Positions 3,001-39,742 of a stretch of DNA of 64,000 nt are shown piece by piece (the stretch's first letter is position 1; each line of letters opens with the position of its first letter). The position numbers and the translations under genes were made by a program. The stretch covers positions 32,001-96,000 of the IMG/VR virus record IMGVR_UViG_3300024999_000053, one strand, 5' to 3'. The notes beneath the pieces are model-generated. The model was not told the origin of the DNA and did not search any database. It saw nothing but the letters and a program-made list of their open reading frames with translations. Source of the DNA: a virus.

Positions 3001-6000
3001 TAGAAACTAAGGAAAGCGAACAAAAATCTCTATTAGCCGAACAAGCATCCTTAGAAGCAAAGAAAACTACTATTGTTGAAAAAGCAAAAGCTGATTTATC
3101 AACAGCAAAACCTGATGGTTACACGCAAGCAGATTTAGATAGTCTGTTGGAACATAATAGTGAGTATAATTTAACTATTGATAAACTTACTACAGTCCAT
3201 TCTCAAGTATTAGATTATAAAAATTCAATAATGCAAGTTTTGCAAGAAATTGGTCAAATTAGAGCAGATGCAATAATAAAACCTTTTACTGATTCTATTG
3301 CTCAATCACAACACAGTATATCTATTCTTGGAAATCTTGATACTCTTGATGAAAAGAAAAAAGCTTATGAATATACTCAAGAAATTGGTGAAACTCTTCA
3401 AGATGAAAGTGAAAAGATTGCAAAGAGAATTTCTGAGATTCAGATTAAACTTAATAATTTAGATCCTAGCAAAGCACCTGAAGAAATTGCTAAATTAAAA
3501 GCAGAACTTGATAAATTAACATCTACTCAATATCAACTTGAGATTGAAATTATTACTAATCTTGATTCTGTAATTTCACAACTCAATAATCTCGATGTAA
3601 GTGGAATTCAAGAAGCGTTTGATGCTGGAGAAGATTGGCAAAGTATTATTCCTATAACTTTAGAAGGTCAGAAGAAATATAATGAACTGTTGATACAGCA
3701 AGCAGAAAATCAACAAGCCGCAACTAAAGCACAAGAGGAATATAATAAAACCTTAGAAAAGACAAAATTAGACCAACTTTTATCAAATGCTGACGGTCAA
3801 TTAAAGGATATTAATGATGCTATTAATTTAGTTGATCATTTTGTTTCTTTGGGAAAAGATGGTACTAGTAAAGAAGTTCCTACAATTGATTATGTTAATG
3901 ATACTCCTCATATTACTCCTAAAACTCCTGAACAAGCTGGGGCAGAAGTTGAAAATCCTGCAAATAAGACAGATTATGTCCCTCCAAAAACTTTTGTTGA
4001 TTTTATAAATAAAGAATTCTCTGATGCACTTAAAACAGGAAATGCACAAATTGCTGGATTTAATGCTGAAATTGATGCTTTAGGGCCAATTACTGAAGAG
4101 AATGTTGGAAAATTTATTGCACTAACTACAAAAATTAGTGATGTTGGAAAAGGATTAAATCAGACTTATTTGGATGCCAGAAAAGCTGTTGAAAATGATA
4201 CGAGCCTTAGTGAAGATGAGCGAAATACAAAATTACAACAAATTGATGCATCTAATATTTCAATATTGTCTAAACCTCAAATACAAATTACATCTGATGC
4301 TAAGCTTGCTCTTAAAACAGCAGGGATAAATATTGCAACGGGTATTATTGAACCATATACAGATGCAATATCTAAATTAGATCCAACTGCAGATATAGCA
4401 AAAATTGCAGAACAATATGCTACTGCTAGTGGAATCACTATGGCAAAAATTGATGAACTCAATAAGGAACTTAACGACCCTGCAACAACTGAAGCCAGAA
4501 AAATTGTTATCACTGCTGAAATTGGTCAATTAAAACTAGATTTGCCTAAAATGGATGCAGGAATTCAAGAAGCAGCAACTGCAATGGCAAATAGTGTTCA
4601 TGCAGAATTTGATAAAAATGCAGAAACTATTCAAGTTGATATTCTGAAGTTAGATCCAACAAGTCAAAAAGAGGAAATCACTAAATTAAACGAAAAACTT
4701 GTTGATGAAATAACCAAAGCAAAAGCCGCAGTTGTAACAAAAATGGATGAACTCAATGATGAATTGAATAATCCTAACACAACAAAAGAGCGAAAAGTTG
4801 TCATAACTGCGGAACTAAGTGCATTAAAGCTCGACTTGAAGAAACTTAATACAGAAATGGCAACTGTCCAAGCAGAAATTGATAAGACCGCAAAAGAAAC
4901 TTCTACTACGATTAAGGTTAAGAGTGATGTAACTAGTGCTAAAAAGTCTATCAAAGAAGTTGAAAATGGAAAATATAAAGCAAGTGTAAAAGTTAATGCA
5001 GAAACAACTGAAGCACAGAAAGCTATTGATGCCTTAAAGAAAGATGCAACTGCTACTATTACTGTTAATGTTGTAGAGGGAACAACTAAATCTAGTAATA
5101 AATCTTCTAATAATGCCTTTGCAAAAGGAACTCTTTTTGCTCCTGAAGGGGAAGCCATTGTTGGTGAAAAAGGCAGAGAGATAATTTCTGAACCTGATGG
5201 AAAAACATATCTTAGTGGAGATAAAGCAGAATTAAGATATTTACCAGAAGGAACATCTGTAATTCCAAATAAAGAAACTGAAGAGTTTCTTAAATCAATG
5301 GGAATTCAAGGATTTGAAGATGGAAAAGGAAAATCTCTAGCTGATTTATTTAAAATTGCTGGACTTAGTGATGTTTCTCAGTTAGGAAATCTTTCTACAT
5401 CTGCTTTACTAACATTAAAGCAAGGTCTTTATAAATATCTGATTGAAACCGCAGGTACATCAATTACAGAATTAACTACTAAATTGAATGCTCCTGAAAA
5501 TATTGATAGTGTTAACGAAGATGGAACAGTAAATTATAAAGACAATGAAGCAACTCAAGCAATTGTTTCAGAAATTAAAACAATTCAAGCAGCAGAAGAA
5601 TCTGCACAAACAGCAATAAAAGCATTAATAGTTGAGAAATATGAAGCTGAATGGGCAGGATTTGATAAGTTACAAACAAATGCAGAGTGGGAAATCAAAA
5701 GTGCAGAAAATAATTTAGAATATAGCAAATTAATTGGTAAGAACAATGAAGATATTGTTGCACAAGAAGAAGCTATATTAGCACAACAGAAAGCAAAAGA
5801 AGCGTCTTTGCTTGCACAACAAATATCTTTAAAAGCACAAAGAGATGGGTTTGCAGTTGATTCATTAGAATATAATACCTTGGATATTAAACTCAAATCT
5901 GTAACGGACGCTCTAGGCACAGTTAGAACCGATGTTTATAATACTGCATCTGAAATCGCCAATCTAAAATTTGAAGCAATAATTTTTCCGTTTAAAGAAG

Positions 6001-9489: not shown

Positions 9490-10254
9490 TTGGATAATTA
9501 TGGTATAATATATTCTGCAAGAAACTTAATAAACAATAAACGATATATAGGTCAAACTACTTGTTCATTAGAGAAAAGAAGAAGAGAACACATCAATTCG
9601 ATTGGTCAACAAAAATATATTTTTCAAAGAGCAATGAAAAAATACGGTGTGGAAAATTTCATATGGGAAGAACTTGACTATGCCGATTCTCCAGAAGAAC
9701 TTGATTATAAAGAAACATATTGGATTGACCACTTTGGAACATATGGCAATAATGGGTATAATATGACTGTTGGTGGTCAAAAAATTCATAAACCATCAAA
9801 AGAAGAGCATATTAAGTATTTACGCACACAGCATGATGATAGAAGTCTCTTAGTATTTGATAAACTTGGTAACTTTATTGAAGAATCTGATAATAGGTTT
9901 TTATTTTGTATAGAGAATAATATAACTACATCGGATGCTAATCAATCATTAACAAATAGGAGACCATCAGTTGGTGATTTTATTCTTATTTATAAGGATG
10001 ATTTTACAAAAGAAAATCTAGATGATAGATTAAAAAGAGTTAGAAACACAAGAGAATTTGTAGTATTTGATGAAAATAATAAATACATAGGCACTTGGTC
10101 TAATCAGACTTATTGTAGCAGAGATACAAAAGCGCATAGGGGAAATATTAGCAGATGTTTAAGTGGAACTTTAAATAAAACTCACGGATATTATTTTTAT
10201 TATTTAGATAATTGTCCAGAAGAATTAAAGCACCTGATTCCACAATCTGACTAA
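9490..10254 (+). CDS. GIY-YIG homing endonuclease with C-terminal NUMOD1-like repeats
   Basis: GIIY...YIGQT...R..EH, E..WI, GYNMTVGG. Confidence 0.85.
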   Translation: MDNYGIIYSARNLINNKRYIGQTTCSLEKRRREHINSIGQQKYIFQRAMKKYGVENFIWEELDYADSPEELDYKETYWIDHFGTYGNNGYNMTVGGQKIHKPSKEEHIKYLRTQHDDRSLLVFDKLGNFIEESDNRFLFCIENNITTSDANQSLTNRRPSVGDFILIYKDDFTKENLDDRLKRVRNTREFVVFDENNKYIGTWSNQTYCSRDTKAHRGNISRCLSGTLNKTHGYYFYYLDNCPEELKHLIPQSD

Positions 10255-28924: not shown

Positions 28925-29310
28925 AAATGACAATTATAAAAAATATTATTAACAAGATTGATAAATTATACACAAATTTCTGCATCGCTTTATATTTTGG
29001 TGCAAGAAGGATTTTATTGAAACTTGATTTAATTGAGTATTAACAAAACCAATAACCCATAATAATAAATTTTAAACAACCTTTAAGCGTTTCAAATACA
29101 AGAGTGGTATAATCTTATACAAAAACTATTTGCTACGCTTAGAGGTGTATTGTGGTTTCTATAACCCTTGTTACAGTAGGGTTTTATGTGGCAACAAATT
29201 AAAAAAGTAATTGAGGTAAGTTAAATATTATGACTTATATTTATTCTGTGGTGGTTGGTATTTTGATTTATAGTATTTATATTATTCATCTATCTATGAG
29301 AGAATCATAA

Positions 29311-29410
29311 ATCCGAGCAAATTCCAGTTTTAATGGATAGGTATAGACTAGGTAGTAAATCGAAGTAATCAAGAGCAAATGAAAGTATAAGAGAGGTAAA
29401 ATAGGGTATA
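29311..29410 (+). repeat. Composite site, copy 1 (AAA-N6-TTT core + three spaced direct repeats)
   Basis: TAGGTAGTAAATCGAAGTAATCAAGAGCAAATGAAAGTATAAGAGAGGTAAAATA aligns without gaps to 61651-61705. Confidence 0.8.
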
Positions 29411-29451
29411 AAACGTAATTTAGGTTAATTTGATAATATTTAGTTGGTTTT

Positions 29452-29484
29452 GGAGAGATGGTTTTATGATCATCTCTCTTTTAT
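29452..29484 (+). terminator. Intrinsic terminator
   Basis: GGAGAGATGGT...ATCATCTCTCT followed by TTT. Confidence 0.6.
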
Positions 29485-29497
29485 TATTGATAATTTT

Positions 29498-29629
29498 ACT
29501 AAATGGCTTTTATGGGTAGCTCCCATATCAAAAAGAAGGTGTCCTTTCCTTCGCCATTTAGTTTTTATATTTTTAAATTAAAGGACAAGAAAAAGTGAAT
29601 AAAAATAAAAAAGAAAAGGACGTGTTAAA
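29498..29629 (+). promoter_or_regulatory. Structured leader (three-way junction with anti-SD loop)
   Basis: P1 ACTAAATGGC/GCCATTTAGT; P2 TATGGG-TAGCT-CCCATA; P3 GAAGG-TGTCCTTT-CCTTC; downstream AAAGGACA and AAAAGGAC. Confidence 0.65.
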
Positions 29630-30751
29630 ATGGAAAATGTATTAACAAAAGTTTATGAAGAACAAGAAGTAGCATTCAGAGAAAACAATGGACAAAGTGA
29701 AGTAAGAATTGATGAAGTGGCTAGATTTTGTGGTTGGACAGAAATTGCAAAAAGCGGAAATGAATGCATTAAATGGGCAAGAGTCAATAAACATTTAGTT
29801 GATTTAGGAGCGTCGACAGTAGTGGCGACAGGTGATTTTATTCCAGAATACATTATGTATCCACTTATAGGTAAAGCAAAAAATGATAGAGCAACACAAT
29901 TTATGTTATGGGTAGGAAAGGTATTAGTAGAAATTAGACAGAATGGTGCTTATATTTCTCCAAATATAACAGAAGAGCAAGAAATCAAGTTAGATAAATT
30001 CTCGACAAATAAAAAGATGAAGAATACATTCAAAACTTGTAATATAGAATCGATAGAGAATGAATATCGTGAATGCATGATGTATCATAAAAATAAAGAT
30101 GGTAAAGAGAAAAATGGTATTCAGAATATAATAATTAATGCTTTAAGTGACAGAAAACAAACATTAATAGATAGTGGCAAAGGGTCTTTTGCTTTAGTTT
30201 TAGCAGAAGTTGTGAATACAATCTCAAAAAAGAAAACTGAAACTAGCAATAAGAGAAATGGACAAACAATTAGATATAAGAATGGAATTATAGATAAGCA
30301 GACACAAATAATCAATGAAAAGGATGAGGAGTTAAATAATTTAGAAAGTAAACTGAATTATTATGAACCAGAAGACTATGAATGGATTGAGTTAAATGTC
30401 CATCCATTTTCTCATAATTACATGACAAGCGCAGCAAAAGATTGGAATACTGGAAATCCAAAAATCGTCAAGAGTGAAGGATATTACAAATGGCAAAATA
30501 AATTTCCATATCAAGAACTTCCTACATTTGATGATTTAGGAATAGATTTTAATAAAAGAGTTTGTGCTTGGTTTAGATTTGTTGCAAAATCAACTTTTGA
30601 CCCAACTAATTGTTCAAAAACTGCATTAGATACTATATGTAAGTATTACGACGTAGATGATAATAAAATAGAAATGATGGAGTGCAAGAAAATAAATAGT
30701 TGTAAAGAATTTTGGGAAGGAAAAATCTATATAGCATTTAGGAATCAATAA
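29630..30751 (+). CDS. Antirepressor/BRO-like N-terminal domain fused to a RusA-like C-terminal domain
   Basis: FIPEY..Y.L..KAKND.A..F..W...VL.EIRQNGAY, and C-terminal FDPTNCSKTALD...DDNKI. Confidence 0.6.
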   Translation: MENVLTKVYEEQEVAFRENNGQSEVRIDEVARFCGWTEIAKSGNECIKWARVNKHLVDLGASTVVATGDFIPEYIMYPLIGKAKNDRATQFMLWVGKVLVEIRQNGAYISPNITEEQEIKLDKFSTNKKMKNTFKTCNIESIENEYRECMMYHKNKDGKEKNGIQNIIINALSDRKQTLIDSGKGSFALVLAEVVNTISKKKTETSNKRNGQTIRYKNGIIDKQTQIINEKDEELNNLESKLNYYEPEDYEWIELNVHPFSHNYMTSAAKDWNTGNPKIVKSEGYYKWQNKFPYQELPTFDDLGIDFNKRVCAWFRFVAKSTFDPTNCSKTALDTICKYYDVDDNKIEMMECKKINSCKEFWEGKIYIAFRNQ

Positions 30752-30835
30752 TACATAAATAAAATAATATTGAATAACGAGGGGTTGTCCGATCTGGACA
30801 ACTCTTTAATAATCAATAAAAGGAGAAATAAAACA

Positions 30836-31099
30836 ATGCACACCTATTTAAAATTAAATGAAGAAAAGTTAGATTTATTGATTAAAGTATTACATGATTC
30901 ACAATATGAAACTGAACATGAAAAGGTCATAGCAAATGAATTATATGAGAAATTTAGACATTTGTGTTTAGATAATTTTTATAATCTTGGTGAAGGTTGG
31001 GATGATGAAGAGGAAGATGTGGATGAGAATTGTGAAAATGATTTATCTCTTGTGAAGAAAAAGGATATAGCAGGTTATGATGATGATTTGGGTTGGTAA
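30836..31099 (+). CDS. Acidic hypothetical protein
   Basis: AAGGAG RBS before ATG 30836. Confidence 0.55.
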   Translation: MHTYLKLNEEKLDLLIKVLHDSQYETEHEKVIANELYEKFRHLCLDNFYNLGEGWDDEEEDVDENCENDLSLVKKKDIAGYDDDLGW

Positions 31100-31243
31100 T
31101 ACTTGTCCAATTTAATTATGTACAGATAGAACGCATATCCTATTAGTAAATTAATAAATAAAGTTAACAAATAAAATATTTCAATAGAAATTGAGACATT
31201 TCATTAATTTGAAGTGTCTTTTATTTGTGTTGAAATAACACAT

Positions 31244-31348
31244 AAGCAGACTAGGATAGGCCATCCGAAAGAAACACTCGCCTTAGTGTTTTTGTCTGCT
31301 TCTATTTTTTAATAATTAAGGCAAATAATAAAAGAAGGCGGTATAAAA
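31244..31348 (+). promoter_or_regulatory. Structured leader (three-way junction with anti-SD loop)
   Basis: P1 AAGCAGAC/GTCTGCTT; P2 GGAT-AGGCC-ATCC; P3 AAACACT-CGCCTT-AGTGTTT; downstream TAAGGC and AAGGCG. Confidence 0.65.
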
Positions 31349-33205
31349 ATGATTAAATGTATGTTAGACAGAAAGACTTTTGCAAAGAAACCAAATGGAT
31401 TTGAATCTAGTGGAATCCAACTAAGATTAATTAAAACAGAAATAGAAATTGAAGAATTAGCAAATTTATTGTGCAATGGAGCAACATTTAAACCTGCATA
31501 TCTTAATGGTACTAAAAGTAAAGATTGGATCAGTCAACAAATATTTGCTTTAGATTTTGATGAAGGGACTACTATTGCTAAAGAGTTAGAAAGATGTAAG
31601 GAGTTAAATATTAATCCAGTATTCGGGTATAAAACATTTTCTTATACAGAATATAAAGAGAAATTTAGACTAGTATTTTGTAATAATGAAGTAATAACTG
31701 ATGTTGAGATAAGGAATGACTTTCAAAATCTATTAATTAAATTATTCTCTAATAGTGATAGTGTTACTTTTGATCCTACTAGACTATTCTTTGGAGGTAA
31801 AGGGTTAATAGAGTGTAATTATAATAATAAAATAAATGTTAAAGAAATAATGGAAAATAATAAAGATTTATTAAATGAAATAAATAATGATAATAATAAA
31901 TCTCTTTCTTCTTCAAATAAATCATCTAAGGGTAAATTGAGCTTTCTCAATACTAATACACTAAACTCTTCTTCTATTAGTATTGCAGAAGCTCACACTC
32001 CTACCCCTATGGGCGTTACAGGTGTTTTAGGGAATATTGAGGCTATAAAATCCCTTGATATTGTTGCTATGAAGGAAATTCTTAATATTGATGAAGAATT
32101 TAAAACAATATGTACTAATAAGCAAGAAGTTTATAATTATATGAATGGAATAGACTTGTGTGAATTTACAAATATCTATGGAATGATAAATTGTATTCTA
32201 CCAGAACACGAAGATGATACACCTTCTGCTCATATCTATGAAACAGATAATGGTACTCAGATATATAAGTGTTTTGGATGTAAAGCAAAATATACAATAA
32301 TATCGTTAGTAGAGAAATTAGCAAAATGTAAAAGAGTCAAAGCTATAGAATTTATTAAACAGGTTTATAATATTGAATTGCAACAAACTGAATGGCAAAA
32401 AGAACAATTAGAAATACTCGATACGAATATAGAATTATTGTTGTCCGATGAATTTAAGGAGATTTATCCACAGTTACATTCATTAATAAGGACTAGGAAA
32501 TCTAATCTCATTGCATTAAATAATTATGCCAAGATGAATGTTAAGGACGAGGATTTTAGTCTAGATGGAAATCCATTATTCTTTGTATCTTTAAATAATT
32601 TGATGGACGTATTTGGATCAAAAGATAAAACTAGAACATCTCAAAGTATTACATTATTTACTTTACTTAGTTTACTTAATAAAATTCCTCATGATAATTT
32701 GCCAGAAGAAACTTTAAAGAAAGCAAAACATATTGCTGCAAAATATAAGCATAAGAAGTTGGTTAATTATTATAGTATTGATCAATATGGAACAGAAACT
32801 TTAGAAGAAAGTAATAAGATTGCTATTTTATTAAAGGAAAACAATATTTCTTTGAAGGGTTTGTCAAGAGAATATTTACTGAGGACTTTTGGCGTAGAAT
32901 TTACTAATAAGGTATTCCCTCAATATGAATATGAGAATAATTTAGGAACAACAGAACAATCCGATGAAAATAGTAGTAGATTAGTTGGATACATATTGAA
33001 AGGAATAGAGGTACAAGGATATGTATTAGAGAAAGATTTAAAAGTAAATGGTATGACTGAGAATCAATGGAGACGTAGTATTCAGGAAATATTGGATAGT
33101 TATGGATTGGTAAAGGTGACTGCTAATAAGGAGATTAAAGAAAAATATAATATTGATTGTCCTGTTAGAAGTTATCCTAAAATTATTATTAAGAGGGATA
33201 ACTAA
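31349..33205 (+). CDS. Primase-like replication protein (AEP-type N-terminal domain + CHC2 zinc finger)
   Basis: FALDFD, YKTFS...KFRLVF, DPTRLFFG; CILPEHEDDTPSA...YKCFGC. Confidence 0.7.
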   Translation: MIKCMLDRKTFAKKPNGFESSGIQLRLIKTEIEIEELANLLCNGATFKPAYLNGTKSKDWISQQIFALDFDEGTTIAKELERCKELNINPVFGYKTFSYTEYKEKFRLVFCNNEVITDVEIRNDFQNLLIKLFSNSDSVTFDPTRLFFGGKGLIECNYNNKINVKEIMENNKDLLNEINNDNNKSLSSSNKSSKGKLSFLNTNTLNSSSISIAEAHTPTPMGVTGVLGNIEAIKSLDIVAMKEILNIDEEFKTICTNKQEVYNYMNGIDLCEFTNIYGMINCILPEHEDDTPSAHIYETDNGTQIYKCFGCKAKYTIISLVEKLAKCKRVKAIEFIKQVYNIELQQTEWQKEQLEILDTNIELLLSDEFKEIYPQLHSLIRTRKSNLIALNNYAKMNVKDEDFSLDGNPLFFVSLNNLMDVFGSKDKTRTSQSITLFTLLSLLNKIPHDNLPEETLKKAKHIAAKYKHKKLVNYYSIDQYGTETLEESNKIAILLKENNISLKGLSREYLLRTFGVEFTNKVFPQYEYENNLGTTEQSDENSSRLVGYILKGIEVQGYVLEKDLKVNGMTENQWRRSIQEILDSYGLVKVTANKEIKEKYNIDCPVRSYPKIIIKRDN

Positions 33206-33206
33206 T

Positions 33207-33929
33207 ATGCAGAATAATTTAGTTTATAAATTCTATAATAGCAATAATGAATTACTTTATGTTGGTATCACAAATAGTATGAAACTTAGGCTAAAGCAAC
33301 ACAAGCAAGATAAAGAATGGTTTACTGAAATCAAAAAAATATGTGTTAGTGATAAAATGACTAGGAATGAAGCACATATCTATGAAATATACTATATTGC
33401 AAATGAAAATCCAAAATATAATGTAGACTATATCAATGGTGGCAAGGTAAGTTTTATGATGGGTGAATTATCATTCAAAGAATATAAAAAAGAGAAGAGA
33501 AAGAAGATAGACGTTGATGTTGTTTTGAGAATGTATAATGAAGGTAAATCAATAGATGAAATAGCCACAGAATTAAAATACTCTACTGAATACATTACTC
33601 AAAACTTGAGATCAAAATTAATAGAATTAGGGGAAGTAAAACCAAATCGTAGAAATGGGAAAAATGAAAGATTTGAAATGTTTGTTAATTGTCTTACATA
33701 CTTGTCTAATAAAAAATATTTTACAATAGAAGATATTGTATATAAGTTCATGAATGATTATGAATGTACAGAGGAAACTGCAAAAACATATTATAAAGAC
33801 GAGTTTGCAGTTTTACTTATTGAAGAGGTTAATAAAATAGGTTTGAAAAGAATTAGAGCGAATAAGATAATTAAAGAGCAATTTGGAATGATAGGGGATG
33901 GGTATCCATTTATTATTTGTGAAATTTAA
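33207..33929 (+). CDS. GIY-YIG nuclease domain + HTH protein
   Basis: VYKFYN...LLYVGIT..MKLRLKQH...E..YI...NPKYN; GKSIDEIATEL. Confidence 0.75.
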   Translation: MQNNLVYKFYNSNNELLYVGITNSMKLRLKQHKQDKEWFTEIKKICVSDKMTRNEAHIYEIYYIANENPKYNVDYINGGKVSFMMGELSFKEYKKEKRKKIDVDVVLRMYNEGKSIDEIATELKYSTEYITQNLRSKLIELGEVKPNRRNGKNERFEMFVNCLTYLSNKKYFTIEDIVYKFMNDYECTEETAKTYYKDEFAVLLIEEVNKIGLKRIRANKIIKEQFGMIGDGYPFIICEI

Positions 33930-33959
33930 TAATAAATCAATAAAAGGAGTGGATACTTA

Positions 33960-34184
33960 ATGAGTAACAATTGCAAATACTGTTCTAATAATAAATCTGA
34001 TGAGATTAATGAGATTATTATTTCAAATAAAGATAATATATGGAATGAAGATGAAGAATTTTTCATTTATATAGAAGACAATTTAATGATTATGTTGGAA
34101 GCAGACGATAATGGTTCAAGTTATCTTGGAGATAGGGTAATTAATTATTGTCCAATGTGTGGAAGGAAATTGAATGATAAGTAA
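33960..34184 (+). CDS. Zinc-binding hypothetical protein
   Basis: CKYC...INYCPMCGRKL. Confidence 0.7.
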   Translation: MSNNCKYCSNNKSDEINEIIISNKDNIWNEDEEFFIYIEDNLMIMLEADDNGSSYLGDRVINYCPMCGRKLNDK

Positions 34185-34204
34185 GTTATAAATAAATATC
34201 CCCA

Positions 34205-34234
34205 TTGACATAAATATAAAAATAATGTTACAAT
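34205..34234 (+). promoter_or_regulatory. SigA-type promoter
   Basis: TTGACA-18-TACAAT with TG extension. Confidence 0.6.
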
Positions 34235-34239
34235 ACATT

Positions 34240-34330
34240 TGTAAATGATTCATTATTATTTTCCATTTCATTTACACTCTCTTTCTTTGTGAGGGAGTTC
34301 TAATTTTATTAGGATTCCCTCTATTTTTTT
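34240..34330 (+). ncRNA. Candidate ~90-nt small RNA
   Basis: Promoter, then a hairpin, a CU-rich linker and terminator GAGGGAGTTCTAAT..ATTAGGATTCCCTC + T run, with no sense ORF. Confidence 0.45.
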
Positions 34331-34492
34331 CTTTTTATTAGTTTCTAAACATTTATTATGAATCATAATTTAAATCATGTTTCATAAATGATATTTCTAA
34401 TAATAATTAATATGATAATTATCAAGATATTATAAATGATAATAAATATAATTACATATTCAATTATTAATTAATGCAAAAATAAAATCCCT

Positions 34493-34521
34493 TGACTTCT
34501 GCACTAGATTGTGCTATGATA
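34493..34521 (+). promoter_or_regulatory. SigA-type promoter
   Basis: TTGACT-17-TATGAT, TG extension, A-rich UP element. Confidence 0.6.
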
Positions 34522-34554
34522 AGTCATCTGAAATAAGGGGAGAGTGCTAATATT

Positions 34555-34857
34555 ATGTTAAGTTCTGTTATATATGGGGTACTGAATAAAGTTTTAGACA
34601 TAACAGGAGAGGTAGATTGTAATTTAGTGGATAATTGTAGACTAGAATTAATGGTAGACAAAATATCATGTGAAGATTTTGTTCAGAAGACCAAGCATTT
34701 TATACTAGAAGAAGATATTTTGAGCTACAATGAAAAAGATTCTAAATTTGTTTTAAAAGTTACTATGAATTTAACAGAAGACTTTATAAACAAAGTAATC
34801 GCTTATGCAAAACAATATTGTTTAGAGGAATTTGAAGAAATGAAGAAAAATAAGTAA
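34555..34857 (+). CDS. Hypothetical early protein
   Basis: Has its own promoter, RBS and terminator (34872-34902). Confidence 0.6.
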   Translation: MLSSVIYGVLNKVLDITGEVDCNLVDNCRLELMVDKISCEDFVQKTKHFILEEDILSYNEKDSKFVLKVTMNLTEDFINKVIAYAKQYCLEEFEEMKKNK

Positions 34858-34934
34858 GTAATTAACTGAATAAAGGGGAATTAAATTTCCCTTTCCTCTT
34901 TTACATTTGTATAAATACAAAAATAAAATTATCC

Positions 34935-34964
34935 TTGACAATAAAATATGCTAGTGGTATAGTT
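34935..34964 (+). promoter_or_regulatory. SigA-type promoter
   Basis: TTGACA-18-TATAGT with TG extension. Confidence 0.55.
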
Positions 34965-35089
34965 AGGACAAGAGAAAGCGAGGTGAGGGAATATATGATT
35001 GTATTAGCAGATATCAATACATAAATTACAAAGTTTACAATCTCCATAAATTAAAAAATAAAATAATAAACGAAAGAGGTAATTTGTAA

Positions 35090-35332
35090 ATGAATCAAAA
35101 TATTATTAATGCAAAAGTTAAAATTGTAACAGTTGATGGAAAAGAATATATCCAATTAGAAGGTGATACAATGGTTGATGAAATGAGTGGTCGAATATTT
35201 GTTGCAAGAATGAGTTTAGAAGATGTAAAATATTCTGTTGGTATGGGAGAAGATGGTAATAGAACTGGTGATATTACATTTAAACTTTCTCCCGATGAAA
35301 GTCATCAGATGGTGAGTTATAGTTTTAGGTAA
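35090..35332 (+). CDS. Hypothetical protein
   Basis: GAAAGAGG RBS. Confidence 0.6.
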   Translation: MNQNIINAKVKIVTVDGKEYIQLEGDTMVDEMSGRIFVARMSLEDVKYSVGMGEDGNRTGDITFKLSPDESHQMVSYSFR

Positions 35333-35417
35333 GTTAGTAAATTACCCATAGCAGAGGGGTTATACTCTGCTGATTAATTACTAAATGCACAAATAAATAT
35401 ATAGGAGATGATTTATT

Positions 35418-35708
35418 ATGATGCAATTTATACATGGATCAAGACAATTAATAGATAGTTTAGTTTGTAATTATTGTGAAATAAAATCTAATAATTATAT
35501 TGAAGCAGAATATCGAGAAAATGAAGAATATGATGTAAAATGGTCTTGTGATAATTGTGGTAAAGAAAATAATATACATATGACTTCTACTATTAAGGGA
35601 GGTTTCGCACTTCCACCTAGTTATGGCAGAGAAATAATTGTAATGCCAAATTGGAAAGTTCTTAAAGAACATGTGATTGAATTACCAAAAGGTACATGTA
35701 TTATTTAA
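35418..35708 (+). CDS. Zinc-ribbon hypothetical protein
   Basis: CNYC...CDNCG, AGGAG RBS. Confidence 0.6.
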   Translation: MMQFIHGSRQLIDSLVCNYCEIKSNNYIEAEYRENEEYDVKWSCDNCGKENNIHMTSTIKGGFALPPSYGREIIVMPNWKVLKEHVIELPKGTCII

Positions 35709-35811
35709 AATATAGTTTTAATAAAAGTAAAGTTAATAAATAAAATATACGGGAGAGAACTTGCAAGTGTAATGGGTGGCCACCCTCCCTGATCAGGAGG
35801 ATGATTTAATA

Positions 35812-36810
35812 TTGGAAGAGAACGTTTTTATGGTTGAATACATAATTGAGAATGGTTTAGATAAATTAGCATATGGTTTTATTTATATAACTACTAATTT
35901 AATTAATGAGAAGAAATATATTGGTCAAAAGATTTTTGACGATTATGGAAATGGTAGATGGAGGAAATATTTAGGTAGTGGGAAATATTACAAAAGAGCA
36001 GAAAGTTTATATGGAAAAGATAATTTTTCCAGAATTATTGTTGCAATTGCTTATTCTAAAGAAGAACTTAATGAGTTAGAAATGATATTTATAAAAAAAT
36101 ATAATGCCGTAAAAAATATAAATTTTTACAATATAACCGAAGGAGGAGGTGGAATGTCAGGATATCGTCTATCAGAAGAAACTATTCAAAAAATACGTAA
36201 GAAAAATTTAAATATGTCTAAAGAGACAAAGGATAAAATGAGTAAATCAGCAAAAGGTAAAATTGTCTCAGAAGAAACAAAGCAAAGAATGAGTGCATCT
36301 CACTTTGGAAATAAACACTCAAAAGATACTATACAAAAAATGAAAAAACCAAAAACCGAAGAACATAAATTAAAAGTCGGTTTGGCGTTAAGGGGGAGAA
36401 AAAGAACAGAAGAACACAATAGAAAATTAAGTATCGCATTAAAAGGAAAGAAACACTCTTTAGAAACCATAGAGAAATTTAAATTAATACAAAAAGGTGA
36501 AAGAAACCCAATGTATGGTAAACATCATTCAAATGAAACAAAAAATAGAATTCGTAAATCAAAAATTGGACGCTGTTTAGGAGAGGATAACCCCAATGCA
36601 AAAAAAGTTATATGTATCAACACATTTAAAATATTTTCAACTCTAAAAGAAGGAGCCAGTTTTTATAATGTTTGTGAATCAAGTATATCACTATGTTGTA
36701 ACAAAAAGTTAAAATCAGCAGGTAAACATCCAATTACAAATGAAAAATTAGTCTGGCAATATTATTCAGAATACATAAAGTCAAACCCTCCACTTCCAAC
36801 TGCAATATGA
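35812..36810 (+). CDS. GIY-YIG homing endonuclease with NUMOD3 repeats and NUMOD1
   Basis: GFIYITTNLIN.KKYIGQK, repeated SEETK..MS / HS.ETK..I units. TTG 35812 follows AGGAGG. Confidence 0.88.
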   Translation: MEENVFMVEYIIENGLDKLAYGFIYITTNLINEKKYIGQKIFDDYGNGRWRKYLGSGKYYKRAESLYGKDNFSRIIVAIAYSKEELNELEMIFIKKYNAVKNINFYNITEGGGGMSGYRLSEETIQKIRKKNLNMSKETKDKMSKSAKGKIVSEETKQRMSASHFGNKHSKDTIQKMKKPKTEEHKLKVGLALRGRKRTEEHNRKLSIALKGKKHSLETIEKFKLIQKGERNPMYGKHHSNETKNRIRKSKIGRCLGEDNPNAKKVICINTFKIFSTLKEGASFYNVCESSISLCCNKKLKSAGKHPITNEKLVWQYYSEYIKSNPPLPTAI

Positions 36811-36852
36811 CCAAATACATAAATAAATTATTCTATCCATTAAAGCAAATTT

Positions 36853-36975
36853 TGAGGACTAACAATTAGATAGTGCAATATCTAATAAAAGTAAAAGAAT
36901 ACTCACTCCTCTACTTTTAAGTTAGTCCTCATTAATATAAATAATTTATTATAAATTGGATGAGGTGATATAAAA
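36853..36975 (+). promoter_or_regulatory. Structured leader (three-way junction with anti-SD loop)
   Basis: P1 TGAGGACTAAC/GTTAGTCCTCA; P2 ATTAGATA-GTGCAA-TATCTAAT; P3 AAAAGTA..TACTTTT with loop ACTCACTCC facing downstream GGATGAGGTGA. Confidence 0.6.
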
Positions 36976-37347
36976 ATAAAAATCGAAATAGGAAGCACAA
37001 GAATAGTTTTTGTATTTAATAAATTTGTGATTAAAATTCCTAATCTATTCGTTCAATATGACCATTTTCTTTATGGATTATTAGCAAATTTAAAAGAAAA
37101 GAATATGTCAGGTAAACATAAAGATTTAGCAAAAGTCTTTTATTGCAATAATCTTGGAATATTTTTAATTATGGAAAAAGCAGAAGTTGTATTAAATGAT
37201 ATAGACATTGGTGAGTTTTGTGATTTATTAACTGATAAATATAAGGATGATAAATTAAAAGAATTTATGTTGTCGGATTGGAAACCTAGTAACTGGGGTT
37301 ATATACGAGGGAGATTAGTAAAAATTGATTATGGAGATTTTAAGTAA
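36976..37347 (+). CDS. Minimal protein-kinase-like-fold protein, ATA start
   Basis: GSTRIVF..VIKIP, LIMEKA, SDWKPSNWG, LVKIDYG. ATA lies 7 nt after GAGGTGA. Confidence 0.55.
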   Translation: MKIEIGSTRIVFVFNKFVIKIPNLFVQYDHFLYGLLANLKEKNMSGKHKDLAKVFYCNNLGIFLIMEKAEVVLNDIDIGEFCDLLTDKYKDDKLKEFMLSDWKPSNWGYIRGRLVKIDYGDFK

Positions 37348-37502
37348 GTTTAAGAAGGATTAATTATATTAATTTAAGGAGGTGATATAAAATGGAAACT
37401 ATTAAATTATCTATTGAAGAAGTTATTAAAATATTGGAATCTAAGACAGATAAAGATCAAAATACTTTTAAAATAATAAATGCATTGAAAGGACTTGAAT
37501 AA

Positions 37503-37796
37503 ATGAATGAAATAAGTAAAGAAGAAAGACAAGTAATTATTGATAATTTTAATTATGAACATAATAAATTATTTTTAAGAATGGAGTACAAACCAATTAT
37601 CGATCAGATTTTAGACTTATTATCTGACAATAAAATAACTCTTGATAATGCTATTTCTATCTTAGATTGGACAAAAGATGAAATAGAGAATATGAAAATT
37701 GTTAGGGGAGGAAATGTGCCAAAATATTTCAGTTCAGCTCATTATATTAATTCTGTAAATTGTGTAGGTCAATGTGTCAAGGATGTAATGGAATAA
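37503..37796 (+). CDS. Hypothetical protein
   Basis: ORF coupled to an upstream small ORF. Confidence 0.55.
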   Translation: MNEISKEERQVIIDNFNYEHNKLFLRMEYKPIIDQILDLLSDNKITLDNAISILDWTKDEIENMKIVRGGNVPKYFSSAHYINSVNCVGQCVKDVME

Positions 37797-37838
37797 GAGA
37801 CTGTATTTAAATTATTAAGTAGTAAAAGAGGTGATATA

Positions 37839-37979
37839 ATGGAAAAGTTTTTAAATGAATTGAGTTCAGTTTGGAATGATTTTTCAGATGAGGCGAGAGA
37901 TAATTGGGCAATATTGCTTGGTGGTAAGAATGGTAAGAGTGAAGTTATGGCTATTATGAGTAAGGAAGATGATATATAA
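37839..37979 (+). CDS. 46-aa hypothetical protein
   Basis: GAGGTGA RBS. MEKFLNELSSVWNDFSDEARDNWAILLGGKNGK... Confidence 0.5.
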   Translation: MEKFLNELSSVWNDFSDEARDNWAILLGGKNGKSEVMAIMSKEDDI

Positions 37980-38070
37980 AAGAGTGCTGGTAACACTCTC
38001 TGGGAAATAATTTATGTAGTGAGAGCAAATAAAAATAAATGGGTGATGGCCGACATTAAGGAGAAAATAT

Positions 38071-38670
38071 ATGATTTATTTATTGGACGAAATTAATTTA
38101 TTAACACAATTGAATTCTTTAGGGAAAATTAAGAGCAAAATTATCAATATAGATACAGGAGAATTAATTTTAGATAGATTAGAAGTGGCATCTCAGAATA
38201 AAGAGTTAATACATACACAATGGTTAAGAGGAATTGGAAAGACACATGGATTAGTTAAATTTGCTAAGAAATATGGGTATATTGTTTTTCATCCAAATGC
38301 AACACAAATTATAGAAGAAGAGGGATATAAATATATTTATGGATGGTATGAAGTACATAATGCTAAAAGAGAAACAGATATAAGAAATGTAGTGATTGAT
38401 GAAGGTTTTAGCGATTCACAAATTATGACCATAAAAGAACATGGTTTTAAAATAATCACTGGATTTTATACTTGCTCCAAAATAAAAGACGAAAGACCAT
38501 TTAGTGAAAAAGTATTAGAAACCCTTGTAGGCGAAATAGAGGAACTTACTCCTAAATTGGAGAAACTTAGAAAAAGTGAGGACTATGGGACATATAAGAA
38601 TCTGATCAATGCTTATAAAGAAATTTTAGGTTTAATACAAAATCATATACAAAATTACGATATTAAGTAA
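38071..38670 (+). CDS. Hypothetical protein with degenerate P-loop motifs
   Basis: RGIGKT and VVIDEG, AAGGAG RBS. Confidence 0.55.
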   Translation: MIYLLDEINLLTQLNSLGKIKSKIINIDTGELILDRLEVASQNKELIHTQWLRGIGKTHGLVKFAKKYGYIVFHPNATQIIEEEGYKYIYGWYEVHNAKRETDIRNVVIDEGFSDSQIMTIKEHGFKIITGFYTCSKIKDERPFSEKVLETLVGEIEELTPKLEKLRKSEDYGTYKNLINAYKEILGLIQNHIQNYDIK

Positions 38671-38682
38671 ACTAGTAAACAA

Positions 38683-38718
38683 ATACTCCTAACTGCTTTA
38701 ATTAGTAGTTAGGAGTAT
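38683..38718. terminator. Bidirectional terminator
   Basis: ATACTCCTAACT...AGTTAGGAGTAT between convergent genes. Confidence 0.6.
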
Positions 38719-38745
38719 CAATATAAGAATTAGAGAATAATTATT

Positions 38746-39018
38746 CTATTTCCACTTTTCATTTTCTTCGGTATCTTTTAATTTTTCTTCTTCAGTTTTA
38801 ATTCTCATAAAGAACATAAGATAACCACAATCATTGCATATTTGTGTAATAGTTGGTGCATGATTTATTGTAAGCCCTGGTGATTCCATACGAATACAAG
38901 CAACCATGTTAAACGGTTTAACATTTTCACTTTTACATATTGGACAAGTTATTGGGAAATTTGGATTTCTTTGGGAATTTATGCTTGTGTCTCCAGTTGT
39001 ATACACATATTTAGACAT
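38746..39018 (-). CDS. Zinc-ribbon protein
   Basis: CPICKS...ICNDCGYLMFF, AGGAGG RBS. Confidence 0.7.
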   Translation of the reverse strand: MSKYVYTTGDTSINSQRNPNFPITCPICKSENVKPFNMVACIRMESPGLTINHAPTITQICNDCGYLMFFMRIKTEEEKLKDTEENEKWK

Positions 39019-39345
39019 TGATTTAATACCTCCTATCTTAGTTATAATCATTGGATAATATGTGCATGTATATTATACCATTATTCATCGTAATTATACT
39101 AATCTAAACTGCAGTTTAGATAGTTTTATTTATCCAATAAAAGTATGTTTTCCTGCGGTAAGTTAAATTTAATAATAGGAGTAAATAATGAAAAATAATG
39201 ATAGAGTTTTTATTGTCAGTAAAGAAAAAATCAAAGCAGTTTTTAGAAGATAGTAAAAAGAATGTTATTAGTCCTGAATTTTTGAAGAAATGTTTGTATG
39301 CTTATAAGATGTTGAATAAGGGAAGGGAATAGGAGGAAAATTATT

Positions 39346-39531
39346 ATGTCTGGTTTGACACCTAAAAAGAAAGAAGAATTGAAACAGATGATGGGTAAGT
39401 ATTCAGGGAAAGTTGGATTGAGTTTGTTGTTGAGGGAGAATAGGGATGTAGATGATATTATTCCTATTAATTGGTCTGAGGATGTTTTGAGTGGTAAGAA
39501 GAGGGTTTTGATTTGTGGGTGTGATGATTAG
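39346..39531 (+). CDS. Hypothetical protein
   Basis: AGGAGG RBS, terminator at 39568-39590. Confidence 0.5.
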   Translation: MSGLTPKKKEELKQMMGKYSGKVGLSLLLRENRDVDDIIPINWSEDVLSGKKRVLICGCDD

Positions 39532-39625
39532 AGTTAGTTTATATAATTTTATATTGATTTAGTTTTTGAGAGCTGTTTAGGCTCTTTTTTGTTTTGTTTG
39601 GGTTTTTAAGTGAAATTGAATTTAA

Positions 39626-39742
39626 TATTGGTTGGATAGGAGTCAGGCCAGACTTTTATCTGTAAAACGAGACACTTTAGTTTTCCTTAGAACTTGAGTG
39701 TCTTATTCCAATTAGTAAACCTATTAAGGAAGGGGATAAATA
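39626..39742 (+). promoter_or_regulatory. Structured leader (three-way junction with anti-SD loop)
   Basis: P1 TATTGGTTGGA/TCCAATTAGTA; P2 AGGAGTC-AGGCCA-GACTTTT; P3 GAGACACTT..GAGTGTCTT with TTCCTTA facing TAAGGAA at 39725. Confidence 0.6.

Follow-up and report, generated by a model that had tools for sequence, protein, structure and literature searches.

Three-way-junction leader RNAs with an anti-Shine-Dalgarno loop and a self-complementary loop in an AT-rich virus genome, and their kinship with the int-alpA motif

Homing-endonuclease genes of T-even phages are preceded by a local hairpin that includes the ribosome-binding site (RBS), and a late promoter inside the hairpin frees this site. 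In the repZ and repA leaders of IncI-alpha and IncB plasmids (Rfam PK-repZ), a hairpin loop pairs with a distant complement beside the RBS of the replication gene and sets its translation; the resulting pseudoknot acts as an activator, and an antisense RNA blocks it. The int-alpA motif (RF02996), a family presumably named for its integrase and alpA neighbour genes, is filed by Rfam as 'Gene; sRNA' with unknown function. Its consensus consists of a closing helix P1, the letters CUAG leading into a short P2 hairpin with a loop of 5 nucleotides (nt), an A-rich GAAAAG joiner, a P3 hairpin whose loop holds CCUU, a U-rich stretch after P1 and an AAGG box. The motif comes from a survey of 224 motifs (PMC5737381). 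Here we describe four leader RNAs, A to D, in a window of 64,000 nucleotides that spans positions 32,001 to 96,000 of the IMG/VR virus record IMGVR_UViG_3300024999_000053 (117,963 bases, 29% G+C). Positions below are those of the window unless the genome is named.

An earlier note on this DNA had proposed that the four leaders share one fold and that a loop of each is complementary to the Shine-Dalgarno (SD) region of the gene behind it. The observation is confirmed and is comparatively well supported for three of the four leaders. We put at roughly 0.6 the probability that leaders A, B and D are cis-acting 5' leaders of a divergent int-alpA branch, which combine an anti-SD loop, a decoy copy of its target and a P2 loop that can pair with itself. 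Leader C may belong to the int-alpA-type leaders as well.

All four leaders lie on the plus strand. Leader A (29498-29562) is closed by P1, 29498-29507 paired with 29553-29562, around P2 (29511-29527, loop UAGCU at 29517-29521) and P3 (29535-29552, loop UGUCCUUU at 29540-29547). The P3 loop has two complements downstream: box T1, AAAGGACA, at 29580-29587 (8 nt, duplex energy -10.1 kcal/mol) and box T2, AAAGGAC, at 29615-29621 (7 nt, -9.4 kcal/mol), the latter in the SD region of an Ant-like gene starting at 29630. Leader B (31244-31301) is closed by 31244-31251 with 31294-31301 and contains P2 at 31254-31266 (loop AGGCC, 31258-31262) and P3 at 31274-31289 (loop CGCCUU, 31279-31284); its boxes are T1, UAAGGC, at 31317-31322 (6 nt, -8.9 kcal/mol) and T2, AAGGCG, at 31335-31340 (6 nt, -10.4 kcal/mol) in the SD region of a primase-like gene starting at 31349. 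The target occurs twice at both loci, as noted earlier. Leader D (39627-39712) carries P2 loop AGGCCA at 39645-39650 and P3 apex UUCCUUA at 39683-39689, with a single target, UAAGGAA, at 39725-39731 (7 nt, -7.6 kcal/mol) in the SD region of a homing-endonuclease-like gene starting at 39743. Leader C occupies 36853-36931; its P2 loop GUGCAA holds UGCA and its P3 loop is long and pyrimidine-rich.

The common fold was borne out. Against 200 dinucleotide shuffles per leader, the z-scores were -5.30 (29498-29562), -3.12 (31244-31301), -6.19 (36853-36931) and -3.76 (39627-39712), and 0, 2, 0 and 1 shuffles folded as well for A, B, C and D, respectively. A closed three-way junction is both the minimum-free-energy and the centroid structure in all four. 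The leaders had also been described as unrelated in primary sequence, and they do not align with one another; however, they have an A-rich P2-P3 joiner in common, and A, B and D also a CCUU-type loop. The whole genome was scanned for closed junctions of 50-95 nt with two simple hairpins and at least 0.30 kcal/mol of folding energy per nt. Nine such junctions were found on the plus strand, leaders A-D among them, and seven on the minus strand, which are mirror images plus one more locus, giving 10 distinct loci from both strands; two dinucleotide-shuffled genomes, the only ones used as control, gave 0 and 3. A palindrome in the first hairpin loop (AGCT, GGCC, TGCA and GGCC) marks exactly leaders A-D among the 10 loci and none of the other six, so that the self-complementary tetramer noted earlier in every P2 loop holds throughout. 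A relaxed scan of the 26,373 intergenic bases on both strands yielded 40 junction candidates, of which just three, at 29498, 31244 and 39626, have both a palindrome in the first loop and a complement of at least 6 nt further downstream; the 36853 locus has the palindrome only. The composite signature occurs in this genome on the gene strand only, upstream of genes.

Two further stable folds were seen outside the window. At genome positions 10147-10222 (window -21853 to -21778), a stable junction (-28.5 kcal/mol) precedes another Ant-like gene, and the RBS region of this gene is similar to the one at leader A; the junction has its hairpins in a different order and no palindrome in the first loop. 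This junction and the five other junction-like loci lack the signature and were set aside as family members. Shortly before the window begins, at genome positions 29862-29953, the gap ahead of a giant open reading frame (ORF) of 3052 amino acids (aa) contains a branched structure that is stable on either strand; the in-window part of this ORF has no Pfam match.

Relatives were sought among deposited phages, IMG/VR and metagenome contigs, and named genomes. A near-identity search of 29000-40000 against deposited phages gave no match, and protein searches of the same region against them gave only distant relatives. In IMG/VR and metagenome contigs, all relatives of the primase-like gene at 71-92% identity have a leader in the same place, and further copies ahead of other genes were recovered by a 14-base P2 word together with the P0 pattern. 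P0 is a small hairpin immediately 5' of leader B (31227-31241) that is kept in relatives, mostly through one-sided (wobble) changes. A covariance model, R1, was built from leader B and eight relatives and recovered more leaders, including L043 and L063 from phages of about 43% G+C. An automatic parser found the three-way junction in 17 of 20 regions; the other three (L001, L014 and L162) fail its filter but align to the same helices.

The helices keep pairing while their sequences change. RNAalifold recovered P0, P1, P2 and P3 from nine homologous leaders, and 11 of 18 pairs remain paired through changes on both sides. Among 23 leaders aligned to the model, 95.1% of cells are paired against 75.7 +/- 1.3% in shuffles (none of 500 as high), 14 of the 18 pairs change on both sides, and the covariation score is 0.558 against 0.216; pairing drops to 33-63% when the partners are slid. 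In P0, 93.5% of cells are paired, and one of five pairs changed on both sides. Nineteen paired cells are G-U, which would read A-C on the other strand. These figures are somewhat too favourable to the structure, since the model guided the alignment and the sequences share descent; the direction is still clear. Every helix shows compensatory changes.

The signature is confined to part of the related loci. Ten of 13 loci with primase homologues (34-48% identity) from named genomes, of Clostridia and others, were examined, and none shows the palindrome together with the loop complement. Relatives of the GIY-YIG gene upstream of leader C were scanned at 71 of 80 loci, nine with short flanks being left out; the plus strand gave five composite matches at four loci, of which only L223 is convincing, and the minus-strand control gave three matches at one locus. 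The five closest of these loci have no junction on either side. The leader is not a general companion of nuclease or primase-like genes. In L223, an unrelated phage contig, a junction at 1401-1464 has a 6-nt palindrome in its first loop, and 8 nt of its second loop are complementary to the ribosome site of a GIY-YIG gene; the design recurs here outside the sequence family.

The match between the P3 loop and the two boxes draws its weight from the relatives rather than from the window alone. Both T1 and T2 are present in 14 of the 17 parsed leaders; D and L012 have the SD copy only, and C has neither. T1 lies 7-27 nt after P1 and is usually the longer or stronger match, and T2, which overlaps the SD core, is found 8-12 nt upstream of the start codon. 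The SD boxes are single-stranded in the minimum-free-energy folds, and no RBS is enclosed in a local hairpin. Covariation of loop and boxes was scored by scripts. The complements of 11 distinct P3 loops to their own downstream regions sum to 130, compared with 94 +/- 9 for permuted loops, and none of 5000 permutations reached 130. Matched changes are found at both boxes: a GCCUU loop goes with AAGGC (window, L001, L002 and L121), UCCUUA with UAAGGA/AAGGA (L014, L037, L075 and L080), and GUCCUUU with AAAGGAC. In the primase-type cassettes, loop ACUCAC goes with GUGAGU/GUGAG (L003), ACUCUC with GAGAGUA/GAGAG (L004 and L158) and ACUCGC with GCGAGU/GCGAG (L126). Among these three close variants, an A at one loop position is matched by U in either box, a U by A and a G by C. 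The proposed covariation of loop and SD thus stands in the relatives, and extends to the second, upstream copy where it is present. The further claim that every P3 loop is complementary to its own RBS holds for A, B and D, with perfect matches of 6-8 nt, and fails for C, where only a bulged pairing exists and no perfect match of 5 nt or more was found.

Self-complementarity of the P2 loop is likewise kept. A palindrome of 4-8 nt occurs in the P2 loop of 15 of the 17 parsed leaders and in none of their 17 P3 loops. Nineteen of the 23 aligned leaders have one, and seven different palindromes are represented, often among close homologues, which argues that self-complementarity is kept rather than sequence. 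Of the four leaders without one, L004 is misaligned, and the other three (L097, L162 and L163b) have a UCGCU loop in common. In none of the 17 parsed leaders does the palindrome recur close by, where it could serve for pairing inside the molecule. The simplest reading of this pattern, as far as loop sequences suggest, is that two copies of a leader would pair through P2. Kissing of P2 and P3 loops within one molecule was considered and dropped, the loop change in L014-type leaders being unmatched in P2. Avoidance of restriction sites as the cause of the palindromes was rejected as well: with 35 occurrences where about 43 would be expected, GGCC shows no remarkable deficit. Nor is a hammerhead or other ribozyme a candidate, as no conserved core was seen by eye and no Rfam match was obtained. 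The window contains no tRNA or tmRNA.

Kinship with int-alpA was assessed with the Rfam covariance model, whose curated cut-off is 35.8 bits. At the gathering threshold Rfam has no match in the whole window. Int-alpA was absent from 29300-39800 at E up to 5 and from the whole genome at E up to 10, and 31200-31360 searched alone at E up to 10 gave 17 weak Rfam matches, none to int-alpA. Relatives of leader B score 35.4, 35.2, 32.4, 32.4 and 30.8 bits against int-alpA, all below the cut-off. Model R1 in turn scores L162, L097, L150 and L163b at 52-73 bits on the same stretches as the int-alpA matches; this link concerns leader B only. A closing helix around exactly two hairpins is common to the window leaders and the int-alpA consensus. 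Leader B has the junction letters CUAG, GAAAG and UG before the 3' strand of P1, and A, C and D have only the A-rich joiner. The set of CCUU loop, U-rich stretch and AAGG box is full in A and B; D lacks the U run, and C has neither loop nor box in such form. The window leaders differ from int-alpA in their AT-rich stems and in standing directly before nuclease, Ant-like and primase-like genes, not integrase or alpA genes. On sequence grounds, leader B is a divergent, AT-rich int-alpA relative by transitive homology, and leaders A and D have the int-alpA architecture in common with it, with no demonstrable homology.

The suggestion that the element is possibly undescribed does not hold in that form, since the architecture is that of int-alpA and relatives fall just under its cut-off, while the window copies themselves do not match RF02996. 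The kind of element is already catalogued and has never been studied functionally. No study of int-alpA was found in the literature searched; the main text of the survey (PMC5737381) does not mention it, and elsewhere the name appeared as a table entry or as gene names. Nor did that literature yield an account of covariation between the loop and T1 or T2, or of a self-complementary P2 loop.

The leaders recur in a small cassette. Terminator-like hairpins followed by T runs precede A (29452-29487; a 12-pair stem at 29452-29479, then a T-rich tail), B (31193-31225, in a position kept in relatives) and D (39568-39592), all on the plus strand. The primase-type cassette has the order conserved box, terminator hairpin, T run, P0, junction, T1, T2 and start codon, and among relatives this order is kept in front of different genes. 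In at least nine relatives, 7-9 nt separate the conserved box, approximately ATATTTCAATAGA at about 31180-31192, from the terminator hairpin that follows; the box is neither a recognisable promoter nor a conserved hairpin. A promoter scan gave 83 sites against 81 +/- 9.2 in shuffles. One weak promoter-like match (9 of 12 positions, TTGAAA-16-TAGGAT) at 31230-31257 overlaps P0 and P2 of leader B; relatives have not preserved its spacing. The idea of a conserved leader peptide downstream of T1 was rejected, such a peptide being present in A, L001, L002 and L003 and absent from others. Separately, 34205-34963 is densely punctuated, unlike its surroundings: strong sigma-70-like promoters with TG extensions at 34205, 34492 and 34935 and terminators at 34291 and 34872 frame very small ORFs.

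For all 15 model matches examined in relatives, a co-oriented open frame starts 14-60 nt after the match, although some frames are cut by the end of the locus and two are short (28 aa in L075 and 15 aa in L163b). Ten downstream proteins in relatives comprise six homing, HNH or GIY-YIG endonucleases, one Ant anti-repressor, one primase-like protein and two of unknown function. In the window they are Ant-like (A), primase-like (B), of one unknown family (C) and homing-endonuclease-like (D); three of the four labels proposed earlier stand, and 'kinase-like' for the gene after leader C has no family support. At least three GIY-YIG homing-endonuclease genes occur in the window (9490-10254, 33153-33929 and 35776-36810), and only some of the selfish genes carry a leader. 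Other RNAs of mobile elements were met in related contigs. A HEARO RNA (RF02033, 55.8 bits, family cut-off 83) at L162:4679-4812, truncated where the locus ends, follows the primase-like gene of that phage contig at a distance of about 1.4 kb from the gene's end. L063, a phage contig with about 43% G+C, carries a group I intron (RF00028, 86.4 bits) at 5275-5522, 2.3 kb upstream of the int-alpA-like leader and its HNH endonuclease gene.

Leader C stands apart as a weak member whose place in the family is doubtful. Its minus strand folds better than its plus strand (-32.8 against -25.2 kcal/mol), no relatives of the leader were found, and a pattern scan of IMG/VR gave none for the so-called kinase-like gene downstream. 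A homologue of leader D, by comparison, is present in the endonuclease relative L012 (2397-2467), in which P3, its loop and the target are kept and P1 is different. After leader C, in the stretch 36958-37347, a long GAGGTGAT-type ribosome site (36958-36969, plus strand) is followed by an ORF of 123 aa, which has a match in PHROG 4301 (function unknown) and none in Pfam. This ORF is open only from ATA at 36970 or 36976, and its first canonical start, GTG at 37027, would remove the N-terminus.

The helices, the match of the P3 loop with T1 and T2, the kept self-complementarity of P2 and the common orientation with the gene directly downstream are matters of observation. T2 changes together with the loop, on the gene strand and always at SD distance from the start codon, which suggests that an anti-SD loop controls the initiation of translation. 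The cassette would then consist of a terminator hairpin, sometimes P0, the junction and a free-standing gene for a homing endonuclease, an Ant-type anti-repressor or a primase-like protein. The junction would serve as a scaffold displaying two loops. Its P3 loop would be an anti-SD word private to each cassette: paired with T2 over the RBS it would hold translation down, and paired with the nearer and usually better-matched T1 it would leave the RBS free, so that the balance between the two pairings would set the amount of protein. Through their self-complementary P2 loops, two copies of the same leader could pair tip to tip. We infer that pairing lowers translation, and likewise what shifts the balance, the dimers and the transcript ends.

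Several results weigh against control by such cis-acting leaders. No convincing sigma-70-type promoter was found between the upstream terminator and the leader, and P0 adjoins the T run of the terminator, so that the leader would need to be read through the terminator or from an unrecognised promoter. A U run directly follows P1 in about half of the leaders and in the Rfam consensus, an arrangement that suits a terminated small RNA no less than the leader of an mRNA. Within the window, the match of loop and RBS in A, B and D is only modestly unusual, suggestive and not compelling: 83, 111 and 41 of 2000 shuffled loops, respectively, reach the loop/target energy of the real one, and for the bulged pairing of leader C 616 of 2000 do as well. 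Much of the complementarity is of a generic CCUU/AAGG kind, cognate loops averaging 6.6 nt and non-cognate loops still 4.7 nt, and because the sequences are related by descent the shuffle tests overstate their independence. The UCGCU-loop leaders do without a palindrome. Finally, the results would be compatible with repression as well as with activation.

The U run leads to a rather unlikely alternative that overlaps with control in cis rather than excluding it, namely that the junction is released as a trans-acting small RNA. P1 and the U run would stop transcription and the freed junction would accumulate, docking on full-length messages by its identical P2 loop and covering T2 with its free P3 loop while the message's own loop sits on T1, a sense-strand feedback on transcript dose. 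Rfam's typing of int-alpA as sRNA agrees with this, as does the run itself, which directly follows P1 in leaders A and B, several relatives and the int-alpA consensus; however, C, D, L003, L043 and L063 lack it, its presence does not track that of T1, and a branched terminator would be unusual. Two targets for one loop in each molecule, together with a self-pairing P2, would be naturally explained by two copies of the leader meeting, and the loop codes differ between cassettes of one genome; on the other hand, B and D have the same P2 palindrome, so that docking would not be private. We also regard as rather unlikely, though akin to it, the further step in which the leaders form a self-recognising, dose-sensing riboregulator on the sense strand by which each selfish gene caps its own expression. 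As messages or U-run-ended junction RNAs accumulate, they would meet through the P2 loop of their cassette, the anti-SD loop of one copy would close T2 of the other, and in lone molecules T1 would occupy the loop. Such a switch would be specified for each cassette by two elements of its own, the P2 palindrome and the P3 loop with its T boxes, and would need neither a protein nor an antisense gene.

A role mainly in RNA stability or processing is quite improbable. The pseudoknot of loop and T1 would then block 5'-to-3' decay or mark a processing site, and the likeness to T2 would be secondary. In the exonuclease-resistant RNAs of flaviviruses, the P3 loop of a three-way junction pairs with bases that follow P1 closely on its 3' side, and by this analogy the topology of the leaders would suit resistance. 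T1 is usually the better match, and the leaders follow terminators, where read-through transcripts would need punctuation. Yet T2 changes with the loop outside the SD core in three primase-type variants, a pattern left unexplained by a function in stability alone, T1 is missing altogether from leaders D and L012, and neither a 5' pseudoknot nor other features of resistant RNAs were seen, though no specific search for them was made. That the inverted repeats act in DNA, as protein-binding or recombination sites of a mobile regulatory cassette that would join a terminator to a promoter, as the PeSL cassettes of T4-type phages do, or as a folded single-strand site with the RNA fold incidental, we hold to be very improbable. 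The inverted repeats do fold on both strands, the recurrence of the whole cassette in front of different genes suits recombinational shuffling, and the weak promoter-like match overlaps P0 and P2 of leader B. Against this, the stems keep pairing while their sequences change, unlike the evolution of protein sites, the G-U pairs are specific to one strand, T2 stays at a fixed SD distance from the start codon while the T1-T2 spacing varies, and the promoter-like spacing is not kept in relatives. Control of translation by cis-acting leaders with an anti-SD loop and a decoy box is thus the reading that we prefer for A, B and D.

The comparative picture suggests a concrete job, ahead of selfish or dose-sensitive phage genes, for a catalogued motif that has no function assigned. 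If the reading is borne out, the Rfam int-alpA model would be too narrow, because AT-rich members such as those of the window are missed. It would explain how free-standing nuclease cassettes stay harmless in Firmicute-type phages, and would offer a rare case of message-to-message pairing in bacteria and a compact, programmable part for tuning translation.

Comparison with described systems places the leaders among several designs. In T-even phages, pairing of RNA over the RBS keeps translation of homing-endonuclease genes such as that of I-TevI low, as is proposed here (PMC2988022, PMC3014915). The same classes of genes follow the leaders and the RBS-sequestering T-even hairpins. Unlike in those hairpins, the RBS here has its partner in the loop of a remote hairpin carried on the junction, the leaders add a decoy of the target and a loop able to pair with itself, and no internal promoter was found. 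From the repZ/repA leaders ours differ in that no antisense partner is seen and the target overlaps the SD; Rfam gave no match to PK-repZ in the whole window or in 29300-39800. The dimerisation initiation site of HIV-1 and other kissing loops use a self-complementary loop word of 4-8 nt, often flanked by purines (PMC7357161). As in such sites, the P2 word changes between relatives and its self-complementarity is kept; unlike in HIV-1, the molecule is a phage message and not a packaged genome, loops of 5-7 nt hold a palindrome of 4 nt, and dimerisation is only predicted. The PeSL cassettes of T4-type phages are short stem-loop cassettes that flank variable genes and recur before different genes (PMC4122927, PMC2839356), and are described as a terminator with an early promoter (PMC4122927). 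Leaders A, B and D likewise follow terminator-like hairpins, with no recognised promoter beyond the weak match at leader B. Unlike in PeSL cassettes, the part that is conserved here is the folded leader RNA.

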